From Escherichia coli (GTDB taxonomy: Bacteria; Pseudomonadota; Gammaproteobacteria; Enterobacterales; Enterobacteriaceae): DNA of 64,000 nt. The notes below the pieces were generated by a model, which saw only the letters and a program-made list of their open reading frames with translations, was not told the origin of the DNA and made no database searches. Positions 2,334 through 34,104 of this stretch are shown here, piece after piece. The position numbers and the translations under genes were made by a program. The stretch's first letter is position 1, and the number at the start of each line of letters is the position of its first letter. Where the stretch lies: assembly GCF_016026235.1 (NCBI RefSeq), contig NZ_CP065613.1, one strand, 5' to 3'.

Positions 2334-2343
2334 AAGCCGCCCC

Positions 2344-3399: not shown

Positions 3400-3413
3400 G
3401 AGATAGTCCTTTA

Positions 3414-5509: not shown

Positions 5510-5606
5510 ACGCATCCTCTCGTAAAAAAGACCATCCCAGGTCGGTTGTCCATCTTTCCATCCTTTTCGGTGTATCAACTATTCAGAGAGTCCTGTCGCA
5601 GACATC

Positions 5607-8295: not shown

Positions 8296-8476
8296 ATATT
8301 AAAAATTATCTGTGATATATATCAGCCAATAAAACATTTATATTGTGAATAAATTTATGATTTTCATTTGAAATTCATAATAATAAATAGAGACAATATA
8401 TTCACATAAAAAATATAAATTTAAAAAAGGGTGCAGGAGACCAAACCATCACAATTCAATACGCGGGGTTTTACCC
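8296..8476 (-). promoter_or_regulatory. Very AT-rich region upstream of cas3; probable promoter / nucleoid-protein-bound region
   Basis: About 180 bp of strongly AT-biased sequence directly upstream of the cas3 start; promoter function inferred from position only. Confidence 0.3.
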
Positions 8477-9770
8477 CTGAGGGATCCCCAGAAAATTTAG
8501 TAAACCATTATCATATTGGTATACCGTTGCTGTAGAACTTTCAGCCCTGCGTCAAGTGACAGTGTGTTTAGTATGAGTGGAGAATGTCGAATCACATTCT
8601 CCGCCAGTTTTAATAACGAGATGACTCGCCTGTGCTTCACTGTATTTGCCTGATATTTATGATGTATCCCTTTGTTTTCCAGGCTGAAACCGCTTAACCA
8701 CATAATGATACTGGCTAATGTTGCGATCAGACTCAATACCGTGACCCGCCCGGATGAATGACTGGCACCAAACCGTAGTCCAAATCCCCAGCGAGGATTT
8801 TTTTCATCCCTGAAATTTTGCTCAATTTGCATTCTACGGCTGTATAATTTCATTACCTGTTTTGGCGAGAACTCAGTACTGTTTGTGAAAATAAACCATG
8901 GTGATTTCCCGGCAGTACGAGCTTTAGCCGTCACCGATGGTCTGGTTGCTCTTTCCTTCGAGCGTTTAAATCTACGACCTTTAGGCTTACTTTTATAAAG
9001 ATAAAAATGCCCTTCATGTTGTGCATTTTTATCTCGACCCAGCAGGCCTTCACCTAAATAAATTGCTGTCGTTGATGCTTTTGTGCCTGAGTCCGACACC
9101 TTTTCCCAGCCATTACCAACATTGTAATAATGATTGCCCAGTACCCGGCAAATATAGGTCCAGCCACGGGAGCGGAGCTGTTGGAACCATCGCCCCTGAA
9201 AACCGGCATCTGTAATAACAATGACATCAGTCCCGGGGGAAAAGCACTCAGCAAGCGATTCCAGAAAACGCTCATGTACATCTGCATTCGCTGTCTGTGA
9301 TGATGGAACGACACAACTCATCAACGGTAAAGAACGCCCGTCACATGCCAGGCTTGCCCGCAAAAGCTGAAAACGAGAGGCATGATAAGCACTCCAGTCA
9401 ATGAGTATCACAACACGAGACATTCCCCGCGTAATCTTTTGGGTAATTCGCTGAAAAATGGTGGAAACCTCATTTTGCAAATGTCGATTCCCCAACAGTC
9501 GATCCACCCGCTTTATTTTGTTTTTAACTGATGCCGTACCGGTTAAATGACGCCCGATACTGGTAAGTGTGAGGGAAGCGCCATTTATTACAGCATTAGT
9601 TGCGTCAATCAGTGATTTTTGACGGTAAAGATGCAAAGGGGCCAGTATGTTGTTAAGGAAATTTTGGCATAATGAACGTGCAGGCATAGTGGTGATCTCC
9701 TTGAAATTGTTAGCACAATCAATTAGATCACATCTCACTATGCCTGTCTTGTTTTCTGGGGATTCCTCAG
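8477..9770 (-). mobile_element. IS4-family, IS10-like insertion sequence (about 1.29 kb); boundaries approximate
   Basis: Imperfect terminal inverted repeats CTGAGGGATCCCC (8477..) and GGGGATTCCTCAG (..9770) resemble IS10 ends; encloses an IS10-like transposase; the 9-bp flanks do not match (no target-site duplication). Confidence 0.75.
8497..9687 (-). CDS. IS10-like DDE transposase, 396 aa (start at MPARSL, inside the IS)
   Basis: Segments ...KIKRVDRLLGNRHL... and ...YSRRMQIEQNFRDEKNP...KYQANTV... closely parallel the IS10 transposase (KRIDRLLGNRHL, YSKRMQIEETFRDLKSP, HFQANTV). Confidence 0.85.
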   Translation of the reverse strand: MPARSLCQNFLNNILAPLHLYRQKSLIDATNAVINGASLTLTSIGRHLTGTASVKNKIKRVDRLLGNRHLQNEVSTIFQRITQKITRGMSRVVILIDWSAYHASRFQLLRASLACDGRSLPLMSCVVPSSQTANADVHERFLESLAECFSPGTDVIVITDAGFQGRWFQQLRSRGWTYICRVLGNHYYNVGNGWEKVSDSGTKASTTAIYLGEGLLGRDKNAQHEGHFYLYKSKPKGRRFKRSKERATRPSVTAKARTAGKSPWFIFTNSTEFSPKQVMKLYSRRMQIEQNFRDEKNPRWGFGLRFGASHSSGRVTVLSLIATLASIIMWLSGFSLENKGIHHKYQANTVKHRRVISLLKLAENVIRHSPLILNTLSLDAGLKVLQQRYTNMIMVY

Positions 9771-9990
9771 GGGCGATCCTCCAGTTCAAATATAAGGTCA
9801 GAACCTGCATGGTTTATATCAGACATCCCTTCACTCCTTTTAAAGTAAATTTGATCATCTGAATTAGTAAAATAAATTCCCACGAATTTGGGGCGCAGGA
9901 CGCCTTGAGAACGGCTTATCTCATTTTCGCAGTCACTATTTAGTCATCGTTCAAACAGAGAAACAGGCCGCCGAAGCGGCCATTTATTAT

Positions 9991-12861
9991 TTATATTTTT
10001 TCCAGCGCAGTGAGTATTTTCTCCGGTGTGAAATGCCATTCGCGTAACCAGATGCCGCATGCATCGTGAATTGCGGTAGCAATCGCCGGAGCTGCGCCAT
10101 TTACACCGATTTCCGAGATCGATTTCGCCCCGAACGGGCCGACTTTATCGTCGCTCGGCACCAGCACAGCGCGGAAATCACGCGGAATGTCACCAATTTT
10201 CGGTGCGCCGTAACTGCGTAAATCACGCGTTAACGGGTGACCTTCGGCGTCATAAATGATCTCTTCGCTCATACTGTGGCCGATAGCACGCAGGGTGGCA
10301 CCGTAGATTTGTCCCAACGCTAACTCTGGATTGACCGGTGTACCGCAGTCCAGCAAGGCGTAGAATTTATCCAGGCGGATTTCACCCGTACGCGTGTTGA
10401 CGGCAACTTCAGCGAAGTTTGCGCCATACGGGAAAGCGAAATCAGGCGTGATATAACTGCCAGTTCCCACCAGTGAACCAAAGCCGGTGCCGGTTTCGCC
10501 TTTATGGGCAATATCCCCGAAACTAACTTCGCCTTTCTTGCCGCGCACGACGCCCGGCGTTGCTAGTTGAACATCTGCCACTGGCTCACCCAACATTTGC
10601 GCGCCGTGGAACAGAATTTTCTCCCGCAGATTTTCCGCTGCCAAACGCGCCGCGTTACCCGAGAAGCAAGTACCGGACGAGGCATATGCGCCTTTATCAA
10701 ACAACGCATGATCGGTATCACCGGAGATAACATGCACGTCCTGCGGTGGGCAGTGCAGCACTTCTGCTGCCAGTTTCGTCACTACAGTATCCAGACCAGT
10801 ACCAATATCCGCACCGCCAGAATGAACGATAAAGGTGCCGTCCGATTCCAGTTTGATCATGCAGTTAGCCTGATCGATATCCGGGATACCCGATTTCTGC
10901 ATGATAATGGCGACGCCGCGACCGATGTGCCAGTCACCATTTTGCGGTTTCGGTGAAGACCATTGGATCATCTCGCGACCCTGACGCAGGATCTCTTCCA
11001 GTGCGCAGCTGGCGGCGGAAGGAACGGAGGTCGGCGCTTTACCTTCACCGATTGCACCGAGAATTTTCAGCTCTTGCCCTTCGTGTACCCGGTTACGTTC
11101 GATAATTTCCAGTTGGTCGATCTGTAACTGTTCAGCCAGTTCCGCTAATGCCATGGTGATAGCGAAGTTACCTTTCGGTGCGCCATAACCCTGATAAGCA
11201 CCATTTGGGCAAATGTTGCTGTAGTAGGTGGTGACCTGGAAATCGACGTTATCGCACGGATATAACGGCAGCGACAGCGCCGGTCCGTTACATGGTACGG
11301 TGAGTGAGTGGTTGCCGTAAGGGCCAGTGTTGGCGCGGAAATCCATCTTCACTGCCGTCAGGCGACCATCTTTTTTCGCTCCCAGTTTGACGGTGACTTT
11401 CGCGACGTGACGAGAGGTGTTAGCAATAAACTCTTCTTCACGGGTGTAGCGGAACAGGACCGGACGCCCGGTCACGCAGGTTGCCCAGGCGCACACTTCT
11501 TCCAGCAGGATGTCCTGTTTGGAACCAAAACCGCCGCCAACTCGTTCTTTAATGACATGAACTTTATGCTGTTTCATGCCCACGAGGCGCGCGACCTGGC
11601 GGCGTAAGTGCCATGGTACCTGGGTGGAGGCGTGGATAACCAGACGATCGCCGTCCATACGAGTAAAGCAGATATGTGTTTCAGTCGGGCACTGCTGCGC
11701 TTGCGTTGAGTTATAGGTTCGCTCAATGATCACATCGGCATCGGCAAAGCCTTTGTCCATATCGCCAATATGACCATGAATACTGGCGGCGATATTTTTG
11801 CGTGGACGAGAACCGATCGGGAAGTTGATGATCATATGCTCGCCGCGCTGGGCTGCATGGCTGTTATCGTCTTCCAGAGTATCTGGCGCACCAGCAACAT
11901 ACACAACCGGTTCATCGTGCACGACAGGCGCATCTTCCGCCATTGCTTCGTCGATCGACATTACCGGTTTAAGCACTTCATATTCAACGTCGATGAGCTT
12001 CAATGCTTCAAGCGCAATTTCTTCACTTTCAGCGACGACCGCAGCAACACGATCGCCGACGTGACGCATTTTCTTGCCGAACATACGGCGGTCAAGCGGT
12101 GACGGTTCCGGTGCGCTCTGCCCCCCCGGGGTATAGTAGATATCCGGGCAATTCAGATGAGTAATAACGTGAACGACGCCCGGTAAGGCTTCAGCTTTGC
12201 TGACATCCAGATGAGTAATCAGTGCGTGAGCGTGTGGGCTACGTAACATTTTAATGACGCAGGCGTCAGCCGTTACGCGGTCTTCAACATAGCAGGGCTT
12301 CGCCTGCACCATTTTTGCGGCATCAGTTTTAGGATAATGCTTACCAATGACTTCAAGGTCGTCACGGAAAGTCGGAGCGATATCAATGGTGGCCTGCGGA
12401 TTATTTTTACGTGCAACCGCCAGTTCAATGACCTGATAGTATTGTTGCCAGCCTGCATCGCGGCTGAACAAACCAGAAAGCGCGTCGTCGATCTCTTCGC
12501 GGGTAGGTGCGGCGATGCGATCGAGAAGATCGGTGATAATCAGAGCCGCAGCTGGATCGTTATAACCAGACTGCACCACGCCAACATCAACCATTGCCTG
12601 TTGAACCAGACTTAACTCGTTCCATTTGCCCAGAGATTCTGCGGTACGAATATCTGCCTTCTCTAACTGTGCGGCAATAAGCAAGGACGCGTTAACGATA
12701 TTACCGTTAAAGATAATTGCGTCAGAACCGGCAAACCCGAAGCCATCATCACTGTTGCGTACAGAGTGCATTCCCATGTTAAACAACAGCTTTTGCACGT
12801 TTTCGCCTGGATTAACGGTTAGCTCCTGAGGCGCGCCATTTAAAGTAAAGTGGATGATCAT
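9991..12861 (-). CDS. xdhD: Molybdopterin-binding xanthine-dehydrogenase-family protein with N-terminal 2Fe-2S domain, 956 aa
   Basis: Length and N-terminus MIIHFTLNGAPQELTVNPGENVQKLL match E. coli XdhD/YgfN as recalled. Confidence 0.9.
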   Translation of the reverse strand: MIIHFTLNGAPQELTVNPGENVQKLLFNMGMHSVRNSDDGFGFAGSDAIIFNGNIVNASLLIAAQLEKADIRTAESLGKWNELSLVQQAMVDVGVVQSGYNDPAAALIITDLLDRIAAPTREEIDDALSGLFSRDAGWQQYYQVIELAVARKNNPQATIDIAPTFRDDLEVIGKHYPKTDAAKMVQAKPCYVEDRVTADACVIKMLRSPHAHALITHLDVSKAEALPGVVHVITHLNCPDIYYTPGGQSAPEPSPLDRRMFGKKMRHVGDRVAAVVAESEEIALEALKLIDVEYEVLKPVMSIDEAMAEDAPVVHDEPVVYVAGAPDTLEDDNSHAAQRGEHMIINFPIGSRPRKNIAASIHGHIGDMDKGFADADVIIERTYNSTQAQQCPTETHICFTRMDGDRLVIHASTQVPWHLRRQVARLVGMKQHKVHVIKERVGGGFGSKQDILLEEVCAWATCVTGRPVLFRYTREEEFIANTSRHVAKVTVKLGAKKDGRLTAVKMDFRANTGPYGNHSLTVPCNGPALSLPLYPCDNVDFQVTTYYSNICPNGAYQGYGAPKGNFAITMALAELAEQLQIDQLEIIERNRVHEGQELKILGAIGEGKAPTSVPSAASCALEEILRQGREMIQWSSPKPQNGDWHIGRGVAIIMQKSGIPDIDQANCMIKLESDGTFIVHSGGADIGTGLDTVVTKLAAEVLHCPPQDVHVISGDTDHALFDKGAYASSGTCFSGNAARLAAENLREKILFHGAQMLGEPVADVQLATPGVVRGKKGEVSFGDIAHKGETGTGFGSLVGTGSYITPDFAFPYGANFAEVAVNTRTGEIRLDKFYALLDCGTPVNPELALGQIYGATLRAIGHSMSEEIIYDAEGHPLTRDLRSYGAPKIGDIPRDFRAVLVPSDDKVGPFGAKSISEIGVNGAAPAIATAIHDACGIWLREWHFTPEKILTALEKI

Positions 12862-13637
12862 ACGGCTTCCTCCCCAGCCTGTTGGCAGTCGGCATACAGG
12901 TCGGCTACCAGAACTCCCGTGATATAGCGTTTATAGGCCACGCTGCCCCGCAAATCTTCCTGCGGGAAAATGGCGTTGGCGACAGCCTGTTCAAGTGCAT
13001 TGCCTTCCAGATTTTGTTTTTCGACATCGTGCAGACGCAGTGCTTTACTGGCGACGCCATCCAGCGCAATTCGCATACCGTCGTGGTCTGTCATTGCAAC
13101 GGCTGCCGTCACGACGGTTAAACCTGCCTGAGAACGGCTAATTTTGCGGGTCGCACAGGTGCGATACGGATCTTTAATGATAATTTCGGTTAGCAGGCGA
13201 TCGCATGGGCAGGTCAGGTAGTCCTCGATTGACAGCGTTTCGCCGTTGCCAAAAACCAGTTCAGCATCCAGTGCTAGCAGGACGGGAAGCAGCACCGACT
13301 CTTCCTGCCGGGCAGCGATTTCACCACCAATGGTCGACTGATTACGAACATGGCGTGAGTAAACAAAACCGAGGGCTTCACGCAGTGCTGCAGGAATAAA
13401 TCGCGCATCACGCAGTGGCTGCAAGCGAGACATTGCGCCAATCCGCAGTGCACCGTTATCCCAGTCAACCCAGTCCAGTTCCAGATCCTGTAAGGAGATG
13501 GCAATCTTTTTATCGGTACGGGTTGGTGTAGCATTGAGTTTGCTGCCCCCGGCGAACCAGACGGCTTCATCCTGGTAGCGGCGCTTCAGTTCCAGCGCCT
13601 GTTCGACAGAGTCGGGCCTGAAAAATTGTTCAATCAT
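12858..13637 (-). CDS. ygfM: FAD-binding subunit of a molybdenum hydroxylase, 259 aa
   Basis: Size and position between ssnA and xdhD as in K-12. Confidence 0.85.
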   Translation of the reverse strand: MIEQFFRPDSVEQALELKRRYQDEAVWFAGGSKLNATPTRTDKKIAISLQDLELDWVDWDNGALRIGAMSRLQPLRDARFIPAALREALGFVYSRHVRNQSTIGGEIAARQEESVLLPVLLALDAELVFGNGETLSIEDYLTCPCDRLLTEIIIKDPYRTCATRKISRSQAGLTVVTAAVAMTDHDGMRIALDGVASKALRLHDVEKQNLEGNALEQAVANAIFPQEDLRGSVAYKRYITGVLVADLYADCQQAGEEAV

Positions 13638-13687: not shown

Positions 13688-15016
13688 TTATGCCAGCGCA
13701 TCCATCCGACGCCACATACTGGCAGCGGCTTTTCTGGCTTGTGCATAAATGGAATCGCAATCGAAGTTAAACTGACGGTCTTCATAGACCATCACACCAT
13801 TGACCATCACGCTGTGAACGCTGCCTGAGCCCATACCGAAAGCGATATGCTCGGCGATATTGTCTGCCAGCAGCGGCGTCGGCGAGTTGTAATCGCAAAT
13901 GGTTAAATCAGCTTTGTAACCGGCTTCCAGAAGCCCAAATTTCGCGCCAAAGTTGCGGCTCATCAGTTCGTTACCGTTAGTCAGGGCTTTGGCAAAACTG
14001 TCAGGCCACAGCGGACCACCCGCATCGCGATGTTTAAAGAAGGCAAATTTCATCTCTTCAAACATGTCCGAACCAATGCCGTCCGTTCCCAACGCCAGAT
14101 TGCGGATGTCGCTAAGATGATGGTTGTAGCCGACATGGTTGTTCATGTTTGAACGGGCGTTATGCACCAGGAACGCATCGCGCTGATTGAGTAGGGTGAT
14201 GTCATCTTTCGACAAGTACAGCCCATGAGCGACCAGTGTTTTGCTGTCGATGAGATCGAATTGCGCCAGTCGTGCCAGCAGGTCTTTGCCGTACCAGTGG
14301 TGACTGTAGGAAACGTCGTAAAGGTCTTCCGCAGCGTGAATATGCAAACCACGGCCTGTGGCTTTCACGGCTTCACGCAGCATCTCCAGACCGGCATCTG
14401 GCACGGTAAACGGCGCGTGAGCACCGATATGTGCTTCCACCAGATACGGCTCGGTTGCTGCTTTCTTCGCCTCATCAATCTGACGGGCAAAGCGGATGTT
14501 TTCTTCTACACCTTCCTGCAACTCTTTGATGCCGTTGTTACGGTCAGTAGTTTCAAAACAGGTCATCGCGCGCAGGCCAACTTTTAAAAATGCGTCGCGC
14601 AATGTGGAGAGCGACCCGCCGATATACGCCGGAGAGGCATGGTGATCGATAACCGATGTACATCCGCTCTTAATCGCTTCCAGGGAACAAATCAGTCCGC
14701 TGTAATAGAGCGACTCTTCATCAAGGGCGCGATCGAGCCGCCACCAGAGATTTTTCAGCGTTGAGATGAAATCCGGGCAGGGGGCGATGTTTGCCATAAT
14801 TCCGCGGGAAAGCCCCGAGTAAAAATGGTTGTGCGAGCAGACAATTCCCGGCATCACAATCCGACTATGCATCTCTTTGTAGCTGGCATCGGGGTAGCGT
14901 TGCGTCAGGGCATCGCCGATAGCGACAATCACGTCATTTTCGATAGCGATATCAACGCCTTCCTGCACTTTCGCCGGGTGTAACTGCACTGCGGTGACAT
15001 TCTTCAGAATCAACAT
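13688..15016 (-). CDS. ssnA: Putative aminohydrolase (amidohydrolase superfamily), 442 aa; start MLILKN
   Basis: Metal-binding HxH motif (SHNHF); length and synteny match SsnA. Confidence 0.85.
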   Translation of the reverse strand: MLILKNVTAVQLHPAKVQEGVDIAIENDVIVAIGDALTQRYPDASYKEMHSRIVMPGIVCSHNHFYSGLSRGIMANIAPCPDFISTLKNLWWRLDRALDEESLYYSGLICSLEAIKSGCTSVIDHHASPAYIGGSLSTLRDAFLKVGLRAMTCFETTDRNNGIKELQEGVEENIRFARQIDEAKKAATEPYLVEAHIGAHAPFTVPDAGLEMLREAVKATGRGLHIHAAEDLYDVSYSHHWYGKDLLARLAQFDLIDSKTLVAHGLYLSKDDITLLNQRDAFLVHNARSNMNNHVGYNHHLSDIRNLALGTDGIGSDMFEEMKFAFFKHRDAGGPLWPDSFAKALTNGNELMSRNFGAKFGLLEAGYKADLTICDYNSPTPLLADNIAEHIAFGMGSGSVHSVMVNGVMVYEDRQFNFDCDSIYAQARKAAASMWRRMDALA

Positions 15017-15018
15017 GA

Positions 15019-18000
15019 TTACACCTCCACGCGGCCCAGCAGATAATGATGATGCTGGTGGACATGGCTGATGATGCGGCACATATCGTTCAGCTCCGGT
15101 GGTACGTTGTTGAACTGACCTTCGCTGTCGATGTTTAACACCCAGCTTTGGTTATTCAGTCGTACTCGTACCCGGCAATCTTCCACAAGGAAGCCTGGGT
15201 TGCTGCTGTTATCAAAGTCTTGCGCCAGGCTGAAGACGGTGATTTTGTCTTTGTACGGTTTACCGTTCCACGGACAGAACTGAGCGCAGTTGCCGCATTC
15301 GTTACAGTAAGCGTCGAGGTGCAGCGTCTGGAAACGGTTCTGGAAGCCTGGGACCGCAATGGAGACGTTGGCGCGGTTCGGGCAGACATCCACACACTTG
15401 CTGCAAACGTAGTTACATTCGAGGCAGCGAGCGGCTTCCTGGGCGACAAACGCGTCACGATCGTCACTGTTCACCAGCGTGATAGAGATATCGCCTTTAC
15501 GTTGATAGATTTCCGCCGGATTGACGTTGTTCCAGTATTTATCGTTCTGGTGGGAACGGATATTTTCCCGACTAAGGATGGCATCGGTCGCCCGACGCGC
15601 GGTTCCGACAGCAGCGACAATGGAGGATGGTCCGCGCTGTACGTCGCCGATCATAAAGACGTCAGTCAGACGAGTTTCGCCATTATGGTCGACGTCTGGC
15701 CAGCCGTTTTTGTCCAGCGGCACGCCCATCGCATTCAGGGCTTCAGTATCCTGCTGTTCACCAATGGCGGTGATCAGGCTGTCTACATGCAGTGTTACTG
15801 TTTCATTGGTTTCAACCGGACGACGACGACCTTTCTCATCCGGTTCGCCAAGCGACATAACGCGCAAGGTTAAGGTGCCATCAGCATCGAAACGTTCCGG
15901 ATTATTCAGGAAACGGAACTCTACGCCGTCGTGCAACGCTTCTTCATACTCTTCGCGCCATGCGGGCATCTCTTGTAGTGAACGACGGTAAACGATCGTT
16001 GCTTTTTCTACGCTTGGAACGCGTAACACCGAACGAGCGCAGTCCATTGCGGTGTTACCCGCCCCGACAACGACCACATGTTTGCCCAGCTTGAGCGCTG
16101 TACCCTTGTTGTATTCACGCAGGAAGGGGAGTGATTTCCAGACATTTTGGTTGTCGCCCGCCAGTTTCACACCGCTATTTTTATCGGTGCCTGTGGCAAT
16201 CAGAACATAATGGAAGCCCTGATTTTTTAACTGTTCAACGGTCAAATCGGGTGAGCAGCCATACTCAAATTTCACGCCGTGAGCGGCAACAAAATCGATA
16301 TCGTGCTGAATTAACTCTGCAGGAATACGGAACTGAGGGATGATATTTTTCACCACGCCGCCTGCATTGGCTTCGCGTTCAAACAGCGTAACCGGATGGC
16401 CCGCTCTGGCAAGGAAGTAACCTGCAGCCAGACCCGCCGGACCTGCACCAATCACGGCAACCGGATGGCGTGAACCAGAACCGGCTGGTTTGTGCCAACG
16501 TTGCTTATATTCATCCCAACCTTTTTCCAGCGCGACTTTTTTCAGTTCGCGGATATTCAGTGCACTGTCGTAATCCAGGCGGGTACAGTTGTATTGGCAC
16601 TGGTGATCGCAAATATGACCGGTAATGGCGGGCAGGGCGTTGCGTTGGTAGATAAGTTCCAGCGCGTCGGCATAGCGGTGTTCGCCAAGCAGACGGATGT
16701 ATTCCGGAATATCTTGCTTGATAGCGCAGGCAGTAACACAGGGGGCAACGTAGCAGTCGGTCAGCGGCAGGTCTTCTGCCACTTCAATACGCTCTTCTGG
16801 CTTCCAGTGTTTCTGGGTGTATTCCATGGTTAACGCATCTGCTGCCAGTCTGTTCAGTCGTTCGACGTCAACATGGTCAAGCCCCCAGGCGTCGGAGCCT
16901 TCCAGCTCGCGCATGCAGGCACTTAAGCGCAGATAGCCGCCTGGTTTCAGCAGGTCGGTTGCCATAGTAATAGGGCGAATACCAGTATCAAAAATATCGC
17001 GGATAGTCAGCTGACTGGCACCACCGGAATAAGAAATGGGCAGTTTGCCGTCAAAGGCGCGAGAGAGAACTGCTGCAACATTGATGGAGAGCGGGAACAG
17101 CGCACGGCCTGACATATACATCTCTTCACCAGGCAGTGCGCCTTTATTGTTGATGGTGCCGAGAGTGTTAGTCAGTTTTACGCCAAAGCCGAGTGATTTT
17201 TCTTTTGCCAGTGCCATCAGGCGTTCCAGCATTTCCAGTGCTTGCGTCAGCTTGAGGTCGTGATCAAATGACTCTTCTTTTAAGCCTATGTAACCGAAAC
17301 CGCAGACATCGAGGATCTCACGAACACGCGCGTATCCCAGTAAGGTCGGGTTAAGTTTCACAAAGGTGTTGAGCCCTTTTTCTTCCAGCATGTAGCGGCA
17401 AATGGCTTCGATTTCATGCGGAGGACAGCCGTGCATGGTGGAGAGGGTGACGCCATGCACCATACTGGTGGGGATGCGAGCGGGTAAGGCTTGCAAGCTT
17501 TCGCGTTTTTCCTGCAATCCGTGGCGAGCTAAAAATGCGTCATCCTGGAGTAATTTATTCAGCGTATCGCGATATTGCGCGAATTTCGGATGGTCAGATG
17601 CGTCCATCATATTGTCGATGAACTGTTGCATTGGCGGTTGCTTAATACCTTCGAGGTTGTAACCGACGCTCATATTAAAGATGAACGATTTACCGGAATC
17701 AGAAGGTTGGAACATCGCTTCGAGAAGGTGCAGGGCAAACCAGGCTTTGAGGTATTCATCCCAGGCTTTAAGCAGGGTAAATTCGGTAGACCATTCGGTG
17801 TTAAAGCACTCGTCTTCGGCATCAATACAGGGCTTTTCCAGCTCTAGGCGGTCAAGAATTTGGACGGTTTTTAGTTCGATGAAACGTCCGCCAGTCAGCC
17901 AGGAAGTGACAATATTTTGCGCGAGCTGCGTGTGCGGGCCAGCGGCAGGGCCGACGGGAGTGGCACAGGTTTCACCGAAGACGCTAACAGTTTTACCTTT

Positions 18001-18117
18001 TACAGGTGAGTAAAACTGTTGCTCGGGAATACCAAAGATTGAGCGTTGTTGTTGGTATTCATCAAATATGCGCGTCAAAAGTTCCTCAAACGGAATGGGA
18101 CGCATAATATCCCCCAT
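15019..18117 (-). CDS. ygfK: Large Fe-S / FAD-NAD oxidoreductase, 1032 aa
   Basis: N-terminus MGDIMRPIPFEELL, size, Cys-rich clusters and dinucleotide-binding GAGPAG motif; synteny. Confidence 0.9.
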   Translation of the reverse strand: MGDIMRPIPFEELLTRIFDEYQQQRSIFGIPEQQFYSPVKGKTVSVFGETCATPVGPAAGPHTQLAQNIVTSWLTGGRFIELKTVQILDRLELEKPCIDAEDECFNTEWSTEFTLLKAWDEYLKAWFALHLLEAMFQPSDSGKSFIFNMSVGYNLEGIKQPPMQQFIDNMMDASDHPKFAQYRDTLNKLLQDDAFLARHGLQEKRESLQALPARIPTSMVHGVTLSTMHGCPPHEIEAICRYMLEEKGLNTFVKLNPTLLGYARVREILDVCGFGYIGLKEESFDHDLKLTQALEMLERLMALAKEKSLGFGVKLTNTLGTINNKGALPGEEMYMSGRALFPLSINVAAVLSRAFDGKLPISYSGGASQLTIRDIFDTGIRPITMATDLLKPGGYLRLSACMRELEGSDAWGLDHVDVERLNRLAADALTMEYTQKHWKPEERIEVAEDLPLTDCYVAPCVTACAIKQDIPEYIRLLGEHRYADALELIYQRNALPAITGHICDHQCQYNCTRLDYDSALNIRELKKVALEKGWDEYKQRWHKPAGSGSRHPVAVIGAGPAGLAAGYFLARAGHPVTLFEREANAGGVVKNIIPQFRIPAELIQHDIDFVAAHGVKFEYGCSPDLTVEQLKNQGFHYVLIATGTDKNSGVKLAGDNQNVWKSLPFLREYNKGTALKLGKHVVVVGAGNTAMDCARSVLRVPSVEKATIVYRRSLQEMPAWREEYEEALHDGVEFRFLNNPERFDADGTLTLRVMSLGEPDEKGRRRPVETNETVTLHVDSLITAIGEQQDTEALNAMGVPLDKNGWPDVDHNGETRLTDVFMIGDVQRGPSSIVAAVGTARRATDAILSRENIRSHQNDKYWNNVNPAEIYQRKGDISITLVNSDDRDAFVAQEAARCLECNYVCSKCVDVCPNRANVSIAVPGFQNRFQTLHLDAYCNECGNCAQFCPWNGKPYKDKITVFSLAQDFDNSSNPGFLVEDCRVRVRLNNQSWVLNIDSEGQFNNVPPELNDMCRIISHVHQHHHYLLGRVEV

Positions 18118-18198
18118 AACCCTCTCCTTAGCTTATACAGATATCATTGAGTGACCGGTGTTGAGAAATCCGGTGGTTTAGGGGGATAGAGCAACAAT

Positions 18199-18216
18199 CG
18201 CACCACTCTTGCCAGG
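18199..18216 (-). promoter_or_regulatory. Candidate sigma54 (-24/-12) promoter upstream of ygfK
   Basis: Minus-strand TGGCAAGAGTGGTGC has GG and GC with canonical -24/-12 spacing, about 85-100 bp upstream of the ygfK start; a sigma54 activator (ygeV) is in the cluster. Confidence 0.3.
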
Positions 18217-18438
18217 TTTGGCGGGAAATATAAAAAAATGTGAGGCGGCTCGAAACTTAAGGGCTTTTTGTGAATGAACTCACAGGTGCTAAATGAGAAT
18301 TAAAATCACTCCTGAAAATTATTATTGCCAGCCCATTTATCAATTTTTCTCTTTTCTCAAAATCAGTGATTCCTTATCATTATGATAATGAGTGCCGGAA
18401 GGATTAAATATTTGAACGCAATCGTTTAACTACGTTTT

Positions 18439-19017
18439 CTAAATTTCAGTATACCTTTCCTTCGCTGTAATAAAGTCGTCCGGAGTATCAATATCTAAAA
18501 TTATTTCTGCATTTTCTATTTCGACGGAATAATGATCTCCCATAAGGAGTGCCTGACGCATATTGGTGACATTGGGTCGTTGGATTGCCTGTATCAAGCA
18601 TGGTTTTGACACTAAAATCGGATGGCCGGGGATGCCATTATGGAGTGGCAGTATTGCGCCATCATTTCGTAACGACCAGATTTTTCTAAAAATATCGATG
18701 GTGAGGGTTGGCATGTCACCGTGGGTGAGAAAACAATGTTCTGTTTGCACTGCGGGTACTGCGGCCTTGACGGATGTTAGTAAACCCTGCGCATAATCTG
18801 GGTTGTGAATAATAGTGATATTGCTCTGGTTCGCATAACGTTCGTGCAGTTCATTACCACGATAGCCGGTGACTAAAATAATTCGGCTACAAAACTGCAA
18901 CGCATTTTTGATACTTGTATCAAGAATTGTTCCCTGTTCCCAGGGTAACATCATTTTCCATTGCCCCATTCTTGATGATAATCCGGCAGCGGTAATTATA
19001 CAGTCGATGGCTGACAT
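18439..19017 (-). CDS. mocA: Molybdenum cofactor cytidylyltransferase, 192 aa
   Basis: Size and synteny (K-12 ygfJ); nucleotidyltransferase-like N-terminus. Confidence 0.8.
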   Translation of the reverse strand: MSAIDCIITAAGLSSRMGQWKMMLPWEQGTILDTSIKNALQFCSRIILVTGYRGNELHERYANQSNITIIHNPDYAQGLLTSVKAAVPAVQTEHCFLTHGDMPTLTIDIFRKIWSLRNDGAILPLHNGIPGHPILVSKPCLIQAIQRPNVTNMRQALLMGDHYSVEIENAEIILDIDTPDDFITAKERYTEI

Positions 19018-19119: not shown

Positions 19120-19890
19120 GTGAAAAGTATAGTTGACCCATCGGCATTAGTCATTGATTTAGGTGCGCAGAAACGTCCCACTGTGATTTCTGTTGTTGGT
19201 GCTGGGGGGAAAACCAGCTTGCTTTTTTGGCTGGCAGAACTGCTCCAGGCTAGCGGCAGGCGTGTGTTAATCACGACGACGACACATATGTTTATGCCAA
19301 CGTCTCACTGGCCCGTGGTTTTCTGTCGTGATCCCGCCATGCTTCCTCATGCGTCTCTTACATCCCCCATTTCATTTTGTTTTCACAGCTGGAAAGCGAA
19401 CCAGGGAAAAGTGCAGGGATTTACGCCAGAAGCGATTGATGCACTGGTGCAACGACCAGAGTGTGACGTAATTCTCATTGAAGCAGATGGCTCGCGTGGA
19501 ATGCCGTTAAAAGCGCCTGATGAGCACGAACCTTGCATACCCAAAAGCAGTTGCTGCGTGATTGCTGTGATGGGAGGACATACTTTGGGCGCGAAAGTGA
19601 GCACAGAAAATGTCCATCGCTGGTCGCAGTTTGCTGATATTACCGGGTTAACACCTGATGCAACCTTGCAACTGAGCGATCTCGTTGCGCTGGTTCGCCA
19701 CCCTCAGGGGGCGTTTAAAAACGTACCGCAAGGTTGTCGGCGAGTCTGGTTCATTAACCGTTTTTCTCAATGTGAGAATGCGATTGCACAAAGCGAGCTC
19801 CTTCAACCGCTGCAACAACACGACGTAGAGGCAATCTGGCTGGGCGATATACAAGAACATCCTGCAATCGCGCGCAGATTTGTGAATTAG
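19120..19890 (+). CDS. yqeC: Selenium-dependent molybdenum hydroxylase system protein YqeC family, 256 aa
   Basis: Size and synteny; P-loop-like motif VVGAGGKTS. Confidence 0.8.
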   Translation: MKSIVDPSALVIDLGAQKRPTVISVVGAGGKTSLLFWLAELLQASGRRVLITTTTHMFMPTSHWPVVFCRDPAMLPHASLTSPISFCFHSWKANQGKVQGFTPEAIDALVQRPECDVILIEADGSRGMPLKAPDEHEPCIPKSSCCVIAVMGGHTLGAKVSTENVHRWSQFADITGLTPDATLQLSDLVALVRHPQGAFKNVPQGCRRVWFINRFSQCENAIAQSELLQPLQQHDVEAIWLGDIQEHPAIARRFVN

Positions 19891-25289: not shown

Positions 25290-26486
25290 TTAAGGTGCTA
25301 CAGCGTGTTTGCCTTCCCAGACAACTTCGCGGTAGTGCTTCACGTCGGTGTCGCCTTCAGTGCTGATAACCAGCACTACGGCATCTTTGTTCAGCGCCAG
25401 TTTTTGCATCAGGCTTTGACGTTGCGGGTGATAATGAACCGCCGCGAGAACGCCCAAACCGACAGCGCCGGATTCACCGGAGATGATGCGCGGGTCGTTG
25501 CCGTACGGATTACCCAGCACGCGCATACCTAATGCGGCAACGCTGTCCTGGCAGGAGATGAATTGGGTGGCGCAGTTACGTAGGATTTCCCAGCCCAGCG
25601 GGTTAGGTTCGCCACAGGCCAGGCCCGCCATGATGGTGGCCATATCACCGCCAACGTTGACGATGTCGCCTTTGACGCCGGAGCGATAAATACAGTCAGC
25701 TTTGTCAGGTTCAACAATAATGCTGTGCAGATTTTGCGGGCTGTAGACGTCGACCAGATAACCCAGCACACCACCGGCCATTGCACCGACACCGGCTTGC
25801 AGCAGAACGTGTGTCGGGGTTACGCCCATTTCACGCATTTGCTCGACGGCTTCATCTGCCAGGGTTGCGTAGCCTTGCATGATCCAGGTTGGGATTTTGG
25901 TGTAACCTTCCCATGCTGTGTCCTGTACCACTTCCCAGCCGTGCTGCTGCGCGTGTTGCATGGTCAGGCGAACGGTATCGTCATAGTTCATATCCGTGAC
26001 GATGCACTCGGCACCGAGGTTCAGAATGGCGTCAACGCGTTCCTGAGCAGAACCTTTCGGCATGTAAATCACCGCATTCTGTCCGAGTTGCTGTGCTGCC
26101 CATGCCACACCGCGCCCGTGGTTGCCGTCGGTGGTGGTCGCGAAGGTCATTTTTTCGCCGATGGCATTTTTCAGGTGCTCAAATGACAGCGTTTCGATAT
26201 CAAGATGATATTTTTCACACAATAATTGAGCGATGGCGTACGCACCGCCGAGCATTTTGAAGGCGTTCAGACCGAATCGTTTTGATTCGTCTTTGACAAG
26301 AATTTTCTTCACACCAAAAAGGTTTGCGAGATCGTCCAGCGCACAAAGCGGTGTTGGGCGATAACCAGCTATTTTCTGGTGGAACTGGCGCGCCAGTTTG
26401 GCCTGGCTTTGCGAAAAGAGCGGTGATGTTTCGCCGTTGAAAAATTTGTTATCGGCGATATCAATCTTCAATGAGAAAACGGACAT
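25290..26486 (-). CDS. dpaL: Diaminopropionate ammonia-lyase (PLP-dependent), 398 aa
   Basis: Size and synteny (K-12 ygeX). Confidence 0.85.
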
Positions 26487-27841: not shown

Positions 27842-28209
27842 AATTATCCACGGGGCTGCAAAAGACTAATTTGACGGATAATGTGTGGGGTTGATCACAA
27901 ATTGATGCTAGCTTCCGGTTGTTTGTAAAATACGAAAACGTTTGGCTTTTTTTATTGCGTTATTTATTTGCTGCTAAGTATCAGAAATAAGATAAAGGGG
28001 CAGGCTATCCCTCGTCAGTTTGATAAACTCACCGCCGTAATTCTCATATTGATATAGAAATGTGATATCTCTTCCATAATTTCATTAGAAAGTGATAAAA
28101 ATCTTATGTTTTTATCAAAGCCAATTTCGCCTGAGTTAATATCATCATGATCTGTGAACCATCAACGTCTTCAATGATCGACTTTTAAGTAAGTCTGGAA
28201 GGTAAAGCT

Positions 28210-29988
28210 ATGGAGCTTGCTACTACGCAGTCAGTATTGATGCAAATTCAACCGACAATTCAGCGTTTTGCCAGAATGCTTGCCAGCGTTTTGCAGCTTG
28301 AGGTTGAGATCGTTGATGAAAACTTGTGTCGCGTCGCCGGAACGGGCGCGTATGGGAAGTTTCTTGGTCGCCAGTTGAGCGGCAACTCACGCCTGCTCCG
28401 CCACGTCCTGGAAACGAAAACTGAAAAAGTTGTGACACAGTCTCGCTTCGATCCCCTTTGCGAAGGTTGCGATAGTAAAGAAAATTGCCGCGAAAAAGCA
28501 TTTCTGGGTACGCCTGTCATTTTACAGGATCGTTGTGTTGGGGTGATAAGTTTGATTGCCGTTACCCACGAGCAACAAGAGCATATCAGTGATAATTTAC
28601 GCGAATTTTCTGATTATGTTCGCCATATATCCACCATTTTTGTTTCGAAACTTCTGGAGGATCAGGGGCCAGGAGATAACATCAGTAAAATATTCGCGAC
28701 CATGATCGATAATATGGATCAGGGCGTATTAGTTGTTGATGATGAAAGTCGGGTTCAGTTTGTTAATCAGACTGCCTTAAAAACACTTGGCGTTGTACAA
28801 AATAATATTATTGGGAAACCTATCCGTTTCAGACCATTAACATTTGAGAGTAATTTTACCCATGGACATATGCAGCATATTGTTTCGTGGGACGATAAAA
28901 GTGAATTAATCATTGGTCAATTGCATAACATTCAGGGCCGACAATTATTTTTAATGGCGTTTCACCAATCGCATACCAGTTTTTCTGTAGCAAATGCACC
29001 TGATGAACCACATATTGAACAATTGGTTGGCGAGTGCCGTGTTATGCGGCAATTAAAACGACTCATTAGCCGTATTGCACCCAGCCCATCCAGCGTTATG
29101 GTGGTTGGTGAAAGCGGCACGGGTAAAGAAGTCGTCGCCCGTGCAATCCATAAGTTGAGCGGAAGACGGAATAAACCCTTTATTGCTATCAACTGTGCCG
29201 CGATTCCGGAGCAGCTTCTGGAGAGCGAACTGTTCGGTTATGTTAAAGGCGCATTTACTGGCGCTTCTGCCAACGGTAAAACAGGGTTGATTCAGGCGGC
29301 GAATACGGGCACGCTGTTTCTCGATGAAATAGGTGATATGCCATTAATGTTGCAGGCTAAATTACTGCGCGCTATTGAGGCACGTGAAATTCTGCCGATT
29401 GGTGCCAGTAGCCCAATACAAGTCGACATTCGCATCATTTCTGCAACTAACCAGAATTTGGCCCAGTTCATTGCCGAAGGTAAATTCCGCGAAGATCTCT
29501 TCTACCGACTTAATGTTATCCCGATAACTCTGCCACCGCTGCGTGAACGTCAGGAAGATATTGAACTACTGGTGCATTACTTTTTACATCTGCATACCCG
29601 TCGTCTGGGATCGGTTTATCCTGGCATTGCTCCCGATGTCGTCGAAATATTGCGTAAGCATCGTTGGCCCGGAAACCTGCGCGAGTTAAGCAATTTGATG
29701 GAATATCTGGTTAACGTTGTTCCTTCAGGTGAAGTTATCGACAGCACGCTATTGCCGCCAAATCTGCTGAATAATGGCACAACGGAGCAAAGTGATGTAA
29801 CAGAGGTCACTGAGGCACACCTGTCACTCGATGATGCGGGCGGCACGGCGCTGGAGGAGATGGAAAAGCAAATGATCCGCGAGGCGCTTTCACGTCATAA
29901 CAGCAAGAAGCAAGTTGCTGATGAACTGGGCATCGGCATTGCTACGCTCTATCGCAAGATTAAGAAATATGAGTTGTTAAACACATAA
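28210..29988 (+). CDS. ygeV: Sigma54-dependent transcriptional activator (enhancer-binding protein), 592 aa
   Basis: AAA+ sigma54-interaction motifs (GESGTGKE, GAFTGA) and C-terminal HTH; divergent from ygeW. Confidence 0.9.
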   Translation: MELATTQSVLMQIQPTIQRFARMLASVLQLEVEIVDENLCRVAGTGAYGKFLGRQLSGNSRLLRHVLETKTEKVVTQSRFDPLCEGCDSKENCREKAFLGTPVILQDRCVGVISLIAVTHEQQEHISDNLREFSDYVRHISTIFVSKLLEDQGPGDNISKIFATMIDNMDQGVLVVDDESRVQFVNQTALKTLGVVQNNIIGKPIRFRPLTFESNFTHGHMQHIVSWDDKSELIIGQLHNIQGRQLFLMAFHQSHTSFSVANAPDEPHIEQLVGECRVMRQLKRLISRIAPSPSSVMVVGESGTGKEVVARAIHKLSGRRNKPFIAINCAAIPEQLLESELFGYVKGAFTGASANGKTGLIQAANTGTLFLDEIGDMPLMLQAKLLRAIEAREILPIGASSPIQVDIRIISATNQNLAQFIAEGKFREDLFYRLNVIPITLPPLRERQEDIELLVHYFLHLHTRRLGSVYPGIAPDVVEILRKHRWPGNLRELSNLMEYLVNVVPSGEVIDSTLLPPNLLNNGTTEQSDVTEVTEAHLSLDDAGGTALEEMEKQMIREALSRHNSKKQVADELGIGIATLYRKIKKYELLNT

Positions 29989-33651: not shown

Positions 33652-34104
33652 GCATGATTCACCCGTAGCGGTTGCTTCCCGCGCTTCCATAGAAATCCCC
33701 TCGATTTGAACATTTGGTTCTTATGGCAAAGATTTAGTCTAAGCAGGCAAGATTTACGCCAGAAACGACGATAAGCGTTAGGGGAGGTAGGAAGTGTGAT
33801 GACGTTAAAAAAACACAGATATGATACGAAACAGGACTCTGAATAGGGGCAGTGATACGTATCAATATGAGTGGCGATAAAATCAATGTGATAAATTGGG
33901 ATTATTACGCATCAGGATGGGAAATAGGGTAAAAAGTCAGGAAGTTCGATACCTCTACAGCGAATATTTTGCTGATGATACTTCCCTTTGCCAAATGAAA
34001 TTAACCTCTTTCTCTATTACCACGTTTTTCCAGAAGCAAGAGATTGGGTATCAAGAGGCTGGCTGCTATGATAAGGCGTCTTGTTTTTTAAGCGAGGAAA
34101 GATT

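Follow-up and report, generated by a model that had tools for sequence, protein, structure and literature searches.

The minus-strand region at positions 18190..18390 of the analyzed stretch of Escherichia coli DNA (64 kb in full, hereafter the window) is likely to be where expression of the ygfK-ssnA-ygfM-xdhD operon is controlled, through a proposed scheme that combines sigma-54 RNA polymerase, the enhancer-binding protein (EBP) YgeV, and CRP. The sigma-54 promoter of ygfK is itself already known and is not a discovery of this work. What is possibly new is the assignment of a motif to E. coli YgeV and the equality of that motif with the Clostridial DioR motif.

The four genes of the operon are ygfK (18117..15019), ssnA (15016..13688), ygfM (13637..12858), and xdhD (12861..9991). 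An earlier note on this DNA had described them as a co-directional run, and both the open reading frames and the RefSeq annotation place all four on the minus strand. The gap between ygfK and ssnA is 2 nt and that between ssnA and ygfM is 50 nt, while ygfM and xdhD overlap by 4 nt. The YgfK protein matches TIGR03315 with a score of 1774 bits. The ygfK ATG (18117..18115) is preceded by a Shine-Dalgarno sequence, AAGGAGAG, at 18129..18122 (together 18115..18129, minus strand), and the string taAGGAGagggttATG is conserved across species. A GC-rich hairpin, GGCCGCTTCGGCGGCC, lies 10 nt past the xdhD stop codon (9966..9981, minus strand) and is a candidate operon terminator; its T-tail is weak (TGTTTCTCTG), and its sequence is identical in K-12.

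The -24/-12 element of ygfK is the 17-mer GTGGTGCGATTGTTGCT on the minus strand at 18190..18206, with its GG at 18204-18203 and its GC at 18192-18191. This assignment draws on a published ChIP-seq motif, a position weight matrix (PWM), and conservation. The matrix was built from 46 independent ChIP-defined E. coli sites, which themselves score from 7.6 to 20.4 bits. It gives the 17-mer 12.24 bits, for which the expected number of matches on one strand of the intergenic region is 0.015. The -12 half, TTGCT, is perfect, and the -24 half reads TGGTG instead of TGGCA. The same 17-mer is the motif beneath sigma-54 ChIP-seq peak OS31 (FAT 26) in MG1655, and the promoter had been predicted still earlier in EcoCyc (Bonocora 2015, PLoS Genet, Table 1, PMC4591121). 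In the accessible text of that paper, OS31 is not among the sites named as validated by qPCR. Genomic SELEX with the sigma-54 holoenzyme detected ygeV/ygeW and did not detect ygfK. [quoted passage not shown]

Across species the element is strongly retained. In 79 of 80 species the orthologous site outscores every other sigma-54 match upstream of ygfK, keeping the form yTGGyryGAWTGTTGCT with scores of 11 to 19 bits; these 79 loci come from Enterobacterales, Aeromonas, Photobacterium, and some Betaproteobacteria. In nearly all of them the element stands 75 to 145 nt upstream of the ygfK start, and in one locus the distance is up to 250 nt. Published in vivo occupancy at OS31 and this conservation together uphold the earlier proposal that a sigma-54 promoter precedes the operon. 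The promoter and the upstream blocks described below are retained also where the divergent gene yqeB, and not mocA, stands upstream of ygfK, which indicates that the promoter belongs to ygfK.

Binding by sigma-54 need not mean transcription, and the strongest competing explanation is that the holoenzyme at this site is poised or acts as a decoy while ygfK is transcribed by sigma-70 polymerase, either through read-through from mocA or from an unrecognized promoter. Bonocora et al. caution that sigma-54 binding is no proof of productive transcription and that many sites may never fire (PMC4591121). The published YgeV iModulon, of which ygfK, ssnA, ygfM, and xdhD are members, is nearly silent over 1035 RNA-seq samples. 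In addition, mocA is co-directional and lies 321 bp upstream of ygfK, and no terminator is predicted between the two genes, so that read-through from mocA could contribute in E. coli. Against this explanation, the -24/-12 element, a helically phased upstream activator site (UAS), and a CRP site are jointly conserved, also in species with a divergent upstream gene, in which read-through is impossible. Further, no sigma-70-like promoter with at least 9 of 12 matches was found on the ygfK strand of the intergenic region, and ygfK is, in the account given of a cited microarray study, one of the genes whose expression rose when sigma-54 was overexpressed, by comparison with a strain lacking it (PMC4591121). 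No mapped start, and no report of rpoN or ygeV dependence of the ygfK mRNA, was found in the accessible literature. Taking both sides together, we consider unproductive binding unlikely and a working sigma-54 promoter the better account.

A palindrome, TATCA-TAA-TGATA, lies at 18387..18375, 181 bp upstream of the 17-mer and centered at about -202. It is a perfect match to TATCA-N3-TGATA and is the first candidate site for YgeV. The same pattern occurs 160 to 182 bp upstream of the 17-mer in 75 of the 80 loci, mainly in two spacing classes, 160 to 161 bp (27 loci) and 180 to 182 bp (36 loci), that differ by about two helical turns. In that interval the palindrome reaches a density of 3.25 per kb, compared with 0.040 per kb elsewhere in the loci, an 80-fold enrichment. 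Allowing at most one mismatch, there are 7 matches in the window where 1.33 would be expected, and 4 of the 7 fall within the three intergenic regions upstream of the sigma-54 promoters. With a PWM trained on sites from outside Escherichia, the ygfK, ygeV-ygeW, and xdhA regions take ranks 1, 2, and 3 in the 64 kb, the ygfK palindrome being the top match at 23.2 bits. The genes ygfK, ygeW, and xdhA carry the three sigma-54 promoters of the cluster, and each has the palindrome upstream. It also precedes ygeW in Aeromonas and, with ygeV divergent from ygeW, in Edwardsiella, Klebsiella, Citrobacter, and a Yokenella-like genome. An activator site centered at about -180 or -200 is farther out than in many sigma-54 systems.

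Next to the palindrome lies a second conserved block, here called block Z, with the sequence TGATTTTGAGAAA (18353..18365, minus strand). It contains a TGAGAA half-site and is a candidate for a degenerate second site, whose implied center would be about 20 bp from that of the palindrome. Among the 53 loci that have a TTTTGAGAA-like sequence, it follows the palindrome by 12 to 13 nt in 52 and by 14 nt in the remaining one. TGAGAA/TTCTCA half-sites are present in the DioR sites of C. difficile, and in Clostridial loci the palindromes occur in tandem at a distance of 19 bp.

The protein most likely to occupy these sites is suggested by the gene content of the cluster. When all six-frame segments of at least 100 amino acids from the window were searched by phmmer with the AAA+ domain of YgeV (ygeV, 28210..29988), a single match was obtained, in agreement with the earlier statement that YgeV is the only activator of the sigma-54 type present. 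The gene lies in the cluster, and its product, by its Pfam domains among other features, consists of an N-terminal Cys-rich sensory region and a PAS domain, followed by the AAA+ domain and a Fis-type helix-turn-helix (HTH). Orthologues of ygeV adjoin ygeW in loci L082 to L085, and homologues of YgeV occur in L089 and L090. Full-length homologues, with 36 to 40% identity from end to end and a similar HTH, are encoded inside uricolytic clusters that also have these palindromes together with sigma-54 promoters; in one case the two are 162 bp apart. A computational reconstruction in Clostridia assigned TTATCA-N3-TGATAA, with the variant TTCTCA/TGAGAA, to the regulator DioR, which controls ygeW-ygfK-ssnA-ygeY, dpaL, xdhABC, and related operons (Nie 2019, BMC Genomics). 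The ygfK palindrome agrees with the DioR UAS ATTTATCATAATGATAAGG at 17 of 19 positions. DioR would be the orthologue of YgeV, a suggestion that relies on homologues in comparable clusters and not on the named DioR proteins themselves (CBO2889, CD3186, and CTC00072). Both ygfK and ygfT are induced by uric acid, and the sole reported effect of a ygeV mutation is reduced ygfT; no direct binding of YgeV at ygfK was found in the accessible literature. YgeV is the probable activator of the ygfK promoter. The earlier proposal of a YgeV-controlled operon is thus well supported but indirectly so, by the sole EBP, the palindrome common to three promoters, its DioR-type sequence, the homologues in similar clusters, and the membership of the genes in the YgeV iModulon.

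A different protein might nevertheless bind the palindrome of an otherwise genuine sigma-54 promoter, either a Fur-like or other repressor or another EBP such as NtrC acting under nitrogen limitation. The UAS of BldR, another Clostridial EBP, contains an identical TATCA-N3-TGATA core, so the core alone cannot tell which EBP binds, and in Aeromonas no ygeV gene turned up within 10 kb of the cluster. The sequence CATTATCATAATGATAAGG also bears a superficial resemblance to a Fur-box array of GATAAT hexamers. We rejected the Fur box reading, in that the half-site order is opposite to that of the Fur 7-1-7 motif, and only TATCA and TGATA are invariant while the flanks and the center vary (for example, TATCAAAGTGATA). 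The element instead accompanies the cluster's sigma-54 promoters and a gene for a YgeV-family EBP, both in Proteobacteria and in Firmicute-type loci. For NtrC, no TGCACC-N5-GGTGCA was evident by eye in the sequence upstream of ygfK, and the cluster encodes no EBP other than YgeV. A binder other than YgeV thus appears quite improbable.

The position of the promoter differs from that given by the earlier note, which had placed a sigma-54 site at 18199..18216, about 85 to 100 bp upstream of ygfK. The string in question, TGGCAAGAGTGGTGC, does occur on the minus strand, at 18214..18200 and so bracketed by that span. Its GG (18213-18212) and GC (18201-18200) have the canonical spacing of 10 nt, and it lies 83 to 97 bp upstream of the ygfK ATG, close to the distance first estimated. 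String, strand, spacing, and distance therefore all stood, but the register did not. In this upstream register, CTGGCAAGAGTGGTGCG (18199..18215, minus strand) overlaps the real element and scores 9.92 bits, ranking about 27th among 128,000 window positions. The window contains 28 matches of at least 9.9 bits, compared with 23.1 ± 5.2 in Markov-simulated windows; matches across the window are at the level of chance, and for this reason a motif match alone was not taken as evidence. A match of this grade is expected 0.06 times on one strand of the ygfK intergenic region. The PWM scan that the earlier note suggested does reveal a sigma-54 element upstream of ygfK, but the register named there is by itself a chance-level match, and the functional one lies 9 bp downstream. 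The upstream register is restricted to four of the 80 loci (L001 to L004, from Escherichia and one Citrobacter), and it varies even among these (CTGGCAAT.., CTGGTAAG..). Its supposed -12 GC is the GC within the real -24 box, TGGTGC. We conclude that the TGGCA...GC string is a fortuitous, Escherichia-specific overlap and probably nonfunctional. That this register is nonetheless the working one (TGGCA at 18214..18210 as -24, GC at 18201..18200 as -12, start at about 18188) is very improbable: the GG-N10-GC spacing is right, TGGCA is a better box than TGGTG, the score is within the range of genuine sites, and the resolution of ChIP peaks alone cannot separate sites 9 bp apart, but MEME put the ChIP motif at the downstream register (PMC4591121), which scores 2.3 bits higher and is invariant within Escherichia, where the upstream one is variable, while the latter is missing from 76 of 80 species and has a -12 region, GGTGCG, without the TTGCW context.

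Between the palindrome and the downstream -24/-12 element lies a CRP-type site, TGTGAGTTCATTCACA (18269..18284), centered at -97.5. It is the only perfect TGTGA-N6-TCACA core in the window, and it is conserved across most Enterobacterales. The ygfK, ygeV-ygeW (divergent), and ygfT-ygfU (divergent) regions are all CRP targets by genomic SELEX (PMC3105977), and uricolysis is repressed by glucose. A scan for the IHF consensus WATCAANNNNTTR gave no conserved site in the DNA that separates the UAS from the promoter, its recurrent matches being confined to the palindrome itself, which makes CRP the probable architectural factor. The sequence of the CRP-type site also agrees with the generic enhancer pattern TGT-N10-ACA.

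Two further conserved blocks flank the CRP-type site on the minus strand. Block A, TGATTTTAATTCTCATT (18292..18308; -129 to -113), is strongly conserved, holds TGATTT and TTCTCA hexamers that resemble half-sites, and in about 50 species stands 100 to 103 bp upstream of the 17-mer. A PWM for block A has a single match in the window, at ygfK, with 39 bits. Block A was also considered as an element common to xdhA and ygeW, and this was rejected, the rigid 26-nt PWM having matched ygfK only; the element shared by the three promoters is the palindrome. Block C, TTAAGTTTCGAGCCGCCTCACA (18239..18260; -81 to -60), is likewise conserved, with a TCAC core that ends 32 to 33 nt upstream of the 17-mer. 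Counted on the sequence, an ATCACA stands at this 32-nt offset in xdhA as well. Within the predicted leader, a hairpin of the form ACCGG-N11-CCGGT (18154..18174, minus strand) begins at +6. In minimum-free-energy folds, most species show a hairpin at +5 to +7, though the stem sequences differ. An Rfam scan of 18000..18500 at E ≤ 1 returned no family.

These elements suggest the following course of events. Sigma-54 RNA polymerase, whose binding is known from the literature, would wait as a closed complex on the 17-mer at 18206..18190. YgeV would bind TTATCA-TAA-TGATAA, centered at about -202, and probably also the degenerate half-site some 20 bp downstream of it. Uric acid or a derivative may be the signal on which YgeV assembles into an active ATPase. 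Cyclic AMP-CRP, which binds in vitro, could then bend the intervening DNA of about 200 bp from its site at -97.5, a role that would render the promoter repressible by glucose. Contact between YgeV and the closed complex would yield the open complex, with transcription predicted to start at about 18179, to pass through the 62-nt leader with its 5' hairpin, and to end probably at the hairpin after xdhD.

The closest known system is the E. coli ygfKp/OS31 promoter, which is the same object: the 17-mer and the 62-bp start distance are the same, and the whole 326-bp ygfK intergenic region of the window is identical to that of K-12. Its published record comprises the binding site only, with no UAS, CRP site, cross-species conservation, or activator. 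The xdhA and ygeW promoters (ChIP sites OS29 and OS30) resemble ygfK in having -24/-12 elements with ChIP occupancy and TATCA-N3-TGAxx palindromes upstream, and ygeW has a CRP-like site as well, centered at -77.5. They differ in UAS distance (131 and 110 bp for xdhA, about 213 bp for ygeW, and 181 bp for ygfK), in their canonical TGGCA/G -24 boxes where ygfK has TGGTG, and in blocks A and C, which are specific to ygfK. The DioR regulon of Clostridiales likewise has sigma-54 promoters with a TTATCA-N3-TGATAA UAS before ygeW-ygfK-ssnA-ygeY and related operons, and an EBP gene in the cluster. It belongs, however, to another phylum with another operon makeup, in which ygfK follows ygeW in one operon, and its sites are complete palindromes arranged in tandem about 19 bp apart, without CRP. 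A functional parallel is prpBCDE, a catabolic sigma-54 operon governed by a cluster-encoded, ligand-sensing EBP that is not a response regulator, PrpR, with cyclic AMP-CRP input as proposed here for ygfK. The two differ in the N-terminus of the regulator family, in the UAS, and in the pathway, and the bending at prp is reported to be due to IHF, whereas no IHF consensus was found at ygfK.

More tentatively, the region may represent a conserved composite enhancer, in which an activator of the YgeV/DioR type acts on a tandem TTATCA-N3-TGATAA site (at about -200 or -180, in spacing classes about two turns apart) and cyclic AMP-CRP at -97.5 replaces IHF. Under this possibility, which we hold with less than even confidence, activator and site would have been kept as a unit between Firmicutes and Proteobacteria, the cluster would have moved between phyla with its sigma-54 circuit intact, and blocks A and C, together with the leader hairpin, would add more layers of control.

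XdhD-YgfM, YgfK, and SsnA are the committing first steps of a recently described reductive uric acid pathway of gut bacteria that is relevant to gout and hyperuricemia, and engineered probiotic strains at present bypass the regulation of the operon. The exact register, along with the candidate YgeV and CRP sites, gives concrete bases at which switching by uric acid, glucose, and oxygen can be probed.

Downstream of xdhD, synteny with K-12 is broken, and the ygfT sigma-54 site of the ChIP study consequently falls outside the window. The open reading frames at 8497..9810 and 7159..8295, which were considered as xanQ and guaD, are in fact an ISEc60 transposase and a cas gene.

The sigma-54 promoter that the earlier note placed upstream of ygfK is real, published and occupied in ChIP data, but its true register lies 9 bp downstream of the one proposed. 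The minus strand from 18220 to 18181 reads caaacCTGGCAAGAGTGGTGCGATTGTTGCTctatccccc, and the string taken for the -24/-12 element, TGGCAAGAGTGGTGC, is indeed found at 18214..18200 (minus strand), with 10 nt from GG to GC and 83 to 97 bp before the ygfK ATG. In the sigma-54 ChIP-seq study of strain MG1655 by Bonocora et al. 2015 (PMC4591121), site OS31 of Table 1 lies upstream of ygfK with a fold-above-threshold of 26, carries the MEME motif GTGGTGCGATTGTTGCT, has a predicted start 62 bp from ygfK, and is marked as an earlier EcoCyc prediction. This 17-mer occupies window positions 18206..18190; it overlaps the proposed string, starting 9 bp further downstream, and the supposed -12 GC is the GC within the true -24 box, TGGTGC. 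[quoted passage not shown] The study also lists sigma-54 sites at xdhA, ygeW, and ygfT. Among the genes of an earlier microarray with overexpressed sigma-54, it names five that have a properly oriented peak, ygfK included. Its authors caution that sigma-54 binding is no proof of firing. Genomic SELEX with the sigma-54 holoenzyme did not report ygfK, and our reading of the literature turned up neither a mapped start site for this gene nor its measurement in ΔrpoN or ΔygeV strains.

A position weight matrix (PWM) was built from 46 intergenic ChIP sites in the PMC4591121 table, all outside the window. The ChIP register (18206..18190, minus strand) scored 12.24 bits, joint 5th of 128,000, with 0.015 such matches expected on the same strand of the mocA-ygfK spacer; the register of the earlier note (18215..18199, minus strand) scored 9.92 bits, about 27th of 128,000, with 0.06 expected. 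Across the whole window there were 28 matches of at least 9.9 bits versus 23.1 ± 5.2 in first-order Markov simulations, and 6 of at least 12.2 bits versus 6.8 ± 2.8. Since these counts are close to the simulated ones, a motif match by itself is no evidence, and support for the ygfK promoter rests on the ChIP data and on conservation.

To assess conservation, a single search with the YgfK N terminus was run against genomes each representing a species; it yielded 80 loci, from Escherichia, Citrobacter, Klebsiella, Raoultella, Edwardsiella, Serratia, Morganella, Aeromonas, Photobacterium, and some Betaproteobacteria. Among sigma-54 PWM matches within 400 bp upstream of ygfK, the top one was orthologous to the ChIP register in 79 of the 80, at 11 to 19 bits and with the consensus yTGG(C/T)(G/C)(C/T)GAWTGTTGCT; many species have the canonical TGGC where E. 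coli has TGGT. The distance from it to the start codon is 75 to 145 nt in almost every locus and up to 250 nt in one. Only the four closest relatives have the upstream register, and its sequence differs among them (CTGGCAATAG, CTGGTAAGAG), whereas their downstream 17-mer does not change. The Klebsiella oxytoca group, Pluralibacter, and others lack mocA and yqeC and have a divergent yqeB upstream, yet the promoter and its upstream blocks are kept, which argues that the element is ygfK's own and does not reflect read-through from mocA. Such read-through may nonetheless contribute to ygfK transcription in E. coli, given that no terminator is predicted 3' of mocA, but it leaves unexplained the conserved promoter in species with a divergent upstream gene. 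On the ygfK strand, the mocA-ygfK spacer contains no sequence with at least 9 of 12 matches to a sigma-70 promoter.

Alignment of the loci on the 17-mer of the sigma-54 promoter revealed conserved blocks at rigid spacing. Block A, TGATTTTAATTCTCATT (18308..18292, minus strand), starts 100 to 103 bp upstream of the 17-mer; block B, TGTGAG-N4-TTCACA (18284..18269), and block C, TTAAnTTTnGA-N5-CTCACA (TTAAGTTTCGAGCCGCCTCACA; 18260..18239, minus strand), are likewise conserved and anchored on it. Blocks A and C are among the most conserved noncoding bases upstream of ygfK, at fixed spacing in some 50 species, and neither matched a nameable factor. The TCAC of block C lies 32 to 33 nt upstream of the -24 box, and an ATCACA is present at equal offset before xdhA. 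The 62-nt ygfK leader contains a hairpin, ACCGG-N11-CCGGT (18154..18174, minus strand; +6 to +26 of the predicted transcript), which recurs at the same leader position in other genera with different stems (GTCGG/CCGGC, GGGG/CCCC, GCCGG/CCGGC). Folding of the first 48 nt of the leader gave a mean energy of -9.1 kcal/mol, versus -7.0 for shuffled sequence, and the hairpin had no Rfam match.

Block B, TGTGAGTTCATTCACA, is the sole perfect TGTGA-N6-TCACA in the window, centered at -97.5 from the predicted start; a CRP-type copy with one mismatch upstream of ygeW is centered at -77.5, 20 bp nearer its start. Block B is lost in a few genera and absent in Aeromonas, and it is also compatible with the generic TGT-N10-ACA enhancer pattern. 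Targets of CRP in genomic SELEX include ygfK, ygeV<>ygeW, and ygfT<>ygfU (PMC3105977). Glucose is known to repress uricolysis, and the CRP site between ygeV and ygeW has been replaced with the aim of lifting this repression. Because no conserved IHF consensus was found between the candidate activator site and the promoter, we propose that CRP may supply the bend.

That candidate activator site is a 13-bp palindrome, TATCA-N3-TGATA (18387..18375), which lies further upstream than blocks A to C and recurs, with no more than one mismatch, in 75 of the 80 loci. An inverted repeat of this kind had been anticipated in the earlier note, though somewhat nearer the promoter. The palindrome occurs at 3.25 per kb within 300 bp upstream of the promoter versus 0.040 per kb in the remainder of the loci. 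Distances to the 17-mer fall into two main classes, 160 to 161 bp (27 loci) and 180 to 182 bp (36 loci), about two helical turns apart, with a minor class at 193 to 194 bp. Block Z, TTTTGAGAA (18365..18353, minus strand), lies 3' of the palindrome in 53 loci, at 12 to 13 nt in 52 of them, and its TGAGAA half-site is positioned as though it were part of another site, about 20 bp from the palindrome. If one mismatch is allowed, TATCANNNTGATA is found at 7 places in the 64-kb window versus 1.33 expected, a count reached in none of 100 shuffles, and four of the seven lie in three spacers before sigma-54 sites: ygfK, ygeW (two sites), and xdhA. A symmetrized 19-nt PWM trained on non-Escherichia ygfK sites only ranked the ygfK upstream site first in the whole window (18372..18390, 23.2 bits), the ygeV-ygeW spacer second (28039..28057, 19.1 bits), and the xdhA upstream site third (33878..33896, 14.8 bits), with an additional xdhA copy 21 bp away. 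In extended loci fetched by exact YqeB or HyuA protein matches, the ygeW sigma-54 site yTGGCACrnTTATTGwT, with a palindrome 214 to 234 bp upstream, was found in five genomes (Edwardsiella, Klebsiella grimontii, Citrobacter, a Yokenella-like genome, and Aeromonas), and a ygeV orthologue is divergent from ygeW in the first four. The palindrome is thus a signature of the cluster's sigma-54 promoters.

The genomic association points to YgeV as the probable binder. YgeV (28210..29988, plus strand) has PAS, Sigma54_activat, AAA_lid_14, and HTH_8 domains, and no other sigma-54-type AAA+ protein is encoded in the window, in agreement with the earlier note's view of it as the sole enhancer-binding protein (EBP). 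One paper terms it an "orphan response regulator," although it has no receiver domain. No Pfam family matches its N-terminal region, where residues 84 to 93 form a C-x2-C-x4-C motif (CEGCDSKENC). Retention of this motif in a homologue with 36% identity, encoded by a uricolytic cluster in a genome of 55% GC, suggests a sensor linked to metal or redox. Expression of ygfT is reportedly reduced in a ygeV mutant, and uric acid strongly induces ygfK and ygfT in MG1655.

In the sigma-54 regulons reconstructed in Clostridiales by Nie et al. 2019 (PMC6615313), the cluster-encoded EBP DioR is assigned dpaL-pbuX-pyrC, ygeW-ygfK-ssnA-ygeY, yqeC-ygfJ-yqeB-xdhC, and hyp-xdhABC. Predicted DioR upstream activator sequences (UAS) in the supplementary table include ATTTATCATAATGATAAGG before C. 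botulinum ygeW-ygfK, ATTTATCAAAGTGATAAGT, and two variants from C. difficile, AATTCTCGTATTGATAAAA and ATTCTCGAATTGAGAATA. The E. coli ygfK site CATTATCATAATGATAAGG is the same as ATTTATCATAATGATAAGG at 17 of 19 positions, and the TTCTCA/TGAGAA variant accounts both for the hexamers resembling half-sites that occur in blocks Z and A and for the ygeW site TATCAATATGAGAAT. Many end-to-end YgeV homologues, at 35 to 41% identity, were found among 1.84 billion representative proteins, and the loci of two were looked up. In one locus (30% GC) the homologue lies beside PALP, M20 peptidase, Amidohydro_3, DHO_dh, and RidA genes, in line with the uricolytic set of the C. difficile type; the other (55% GC) contains xanthine dehydrogenase, amidohydrolase, and permease genes. 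Both loci have the palindromes together with strong sigma-54 sites; at the second, the palindrome precedes a 20.4-bit sigma-54 site by 162 bp, a distance of the same class as that seen in Enterobacterales. The pairwise alignment is full length, covering the N-terminal CxxC-x4-C and the HTH (LGIGIATLYRKIK versus LGIGTATLYRMLK). We infer that YgeV and DioR are one family with a common site, the basis being cluster homologues and not named DioR proteins. The UAS of BldR in the PMC6615313 table has the same core as the palindrome, so the core alone marks an EBP class and not a single protein.

The downstream genes are consistent with a four-gene operon. The 1032-codon ygfK (18117..15019, minus strand; 1774 bits to the NCBIfam equivalog TIGR03315) lies in a region 99.9% identical to many E. 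coli chromosomes, whose annotation of mocA, ygfK, ssnA, ygfM, and xdhD as co-directional, with yqeC and yqeB divergent upstream, bears out the gene order described earlier. The 326-bp mocA-ygfK spacer is the same as that of K-12 MG1655 at every base. Successive genes in the ygfK-ssnA-ygfM-xdhD run are separated by 2 nt, by 50 nt, and by a 4-nt overlap, and a GC-rich hairpin, the same in K-12, follows the xdhD stop (9981..9966). In published work, XdhD-YgfM converts uric acid to isoxanthine, and YgfK-SsnA carries out the next step, reductive dearomatization and ring opening. Identity to K-12 runs 225 nt beyond the xdhD stop to 9770, about 56 nt inside xanQ, which is interrupted; next comes an IS4-like ISEc60 element (8459..9826; transposase ORF 8497..9810). 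Past it (1..8477) lie type I-E CRISPR-Cas genes with just 96.6% identity to the closest complete E. coli genomes. This junction was found in 0 of 5426 complete genomes, and as a result guaD, ghxQ, ygfST, and uacT do not adjoin the cluster in this sequence.

In the mechanism we propose, Eσ54, whose binding is known from the literature, would form a closed complex at 18206..18190, and YgeV would bind the palindrome and adjacent half-site. Its N-terminal region and PAS domain would sense an inducer, probably uric acid or a derivative, judging from the induction data. Looping assisted by CRP, which binds in vitro, may carry YgeV to the closed complex, and ATP-driven opening would start transcription near 18179, giving the 62-nt leader with its hairpin. 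Previous publications already describe the promoter, its occupancy by sigma-54, and the operon's grouping with YgeV. Added here are the corrected register and its conservation across 79 species, a candidate YgeV motif in Enterobacterales equal to the Clostridial DioR motif, its helically phased spacing, and the CRP core at -97.5. All of them refine a type of system that is already known, and a few mutants would suffice to test them.

Other palindrome matches were observed. Those inside ygeX (TATCAAGATGATA; 26195..26213, 13.4 bits) and yqeC (TCTCAATGTGAGA; 19762..19780, 14.4 bits) may be chance or internal sites, and one within the IS element (8506..8524) is presumably chance. An FNR-like sequence, TTGATacgtATCAc (about 33853..33866, minus strand), lies between the palindromes and the sigma-54 site of xdhA and matches TTGAT-N4-ATCAA at 9 of 10 positions, a candidate that would plausibly fit an anaerobic pathway. 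In the Klebsiella grimontii locus, a 13.0-bit sigma-54 site, TTGGCACAGCTTACGCA, lies 143 nt before a uacT-like permease gene at position 21235 of that locus, with two one-mismatch palindromes 129 and 184 bp upstream of the sigma-54 site, which suggests that the urate transporter may also be a regulon member in this species.
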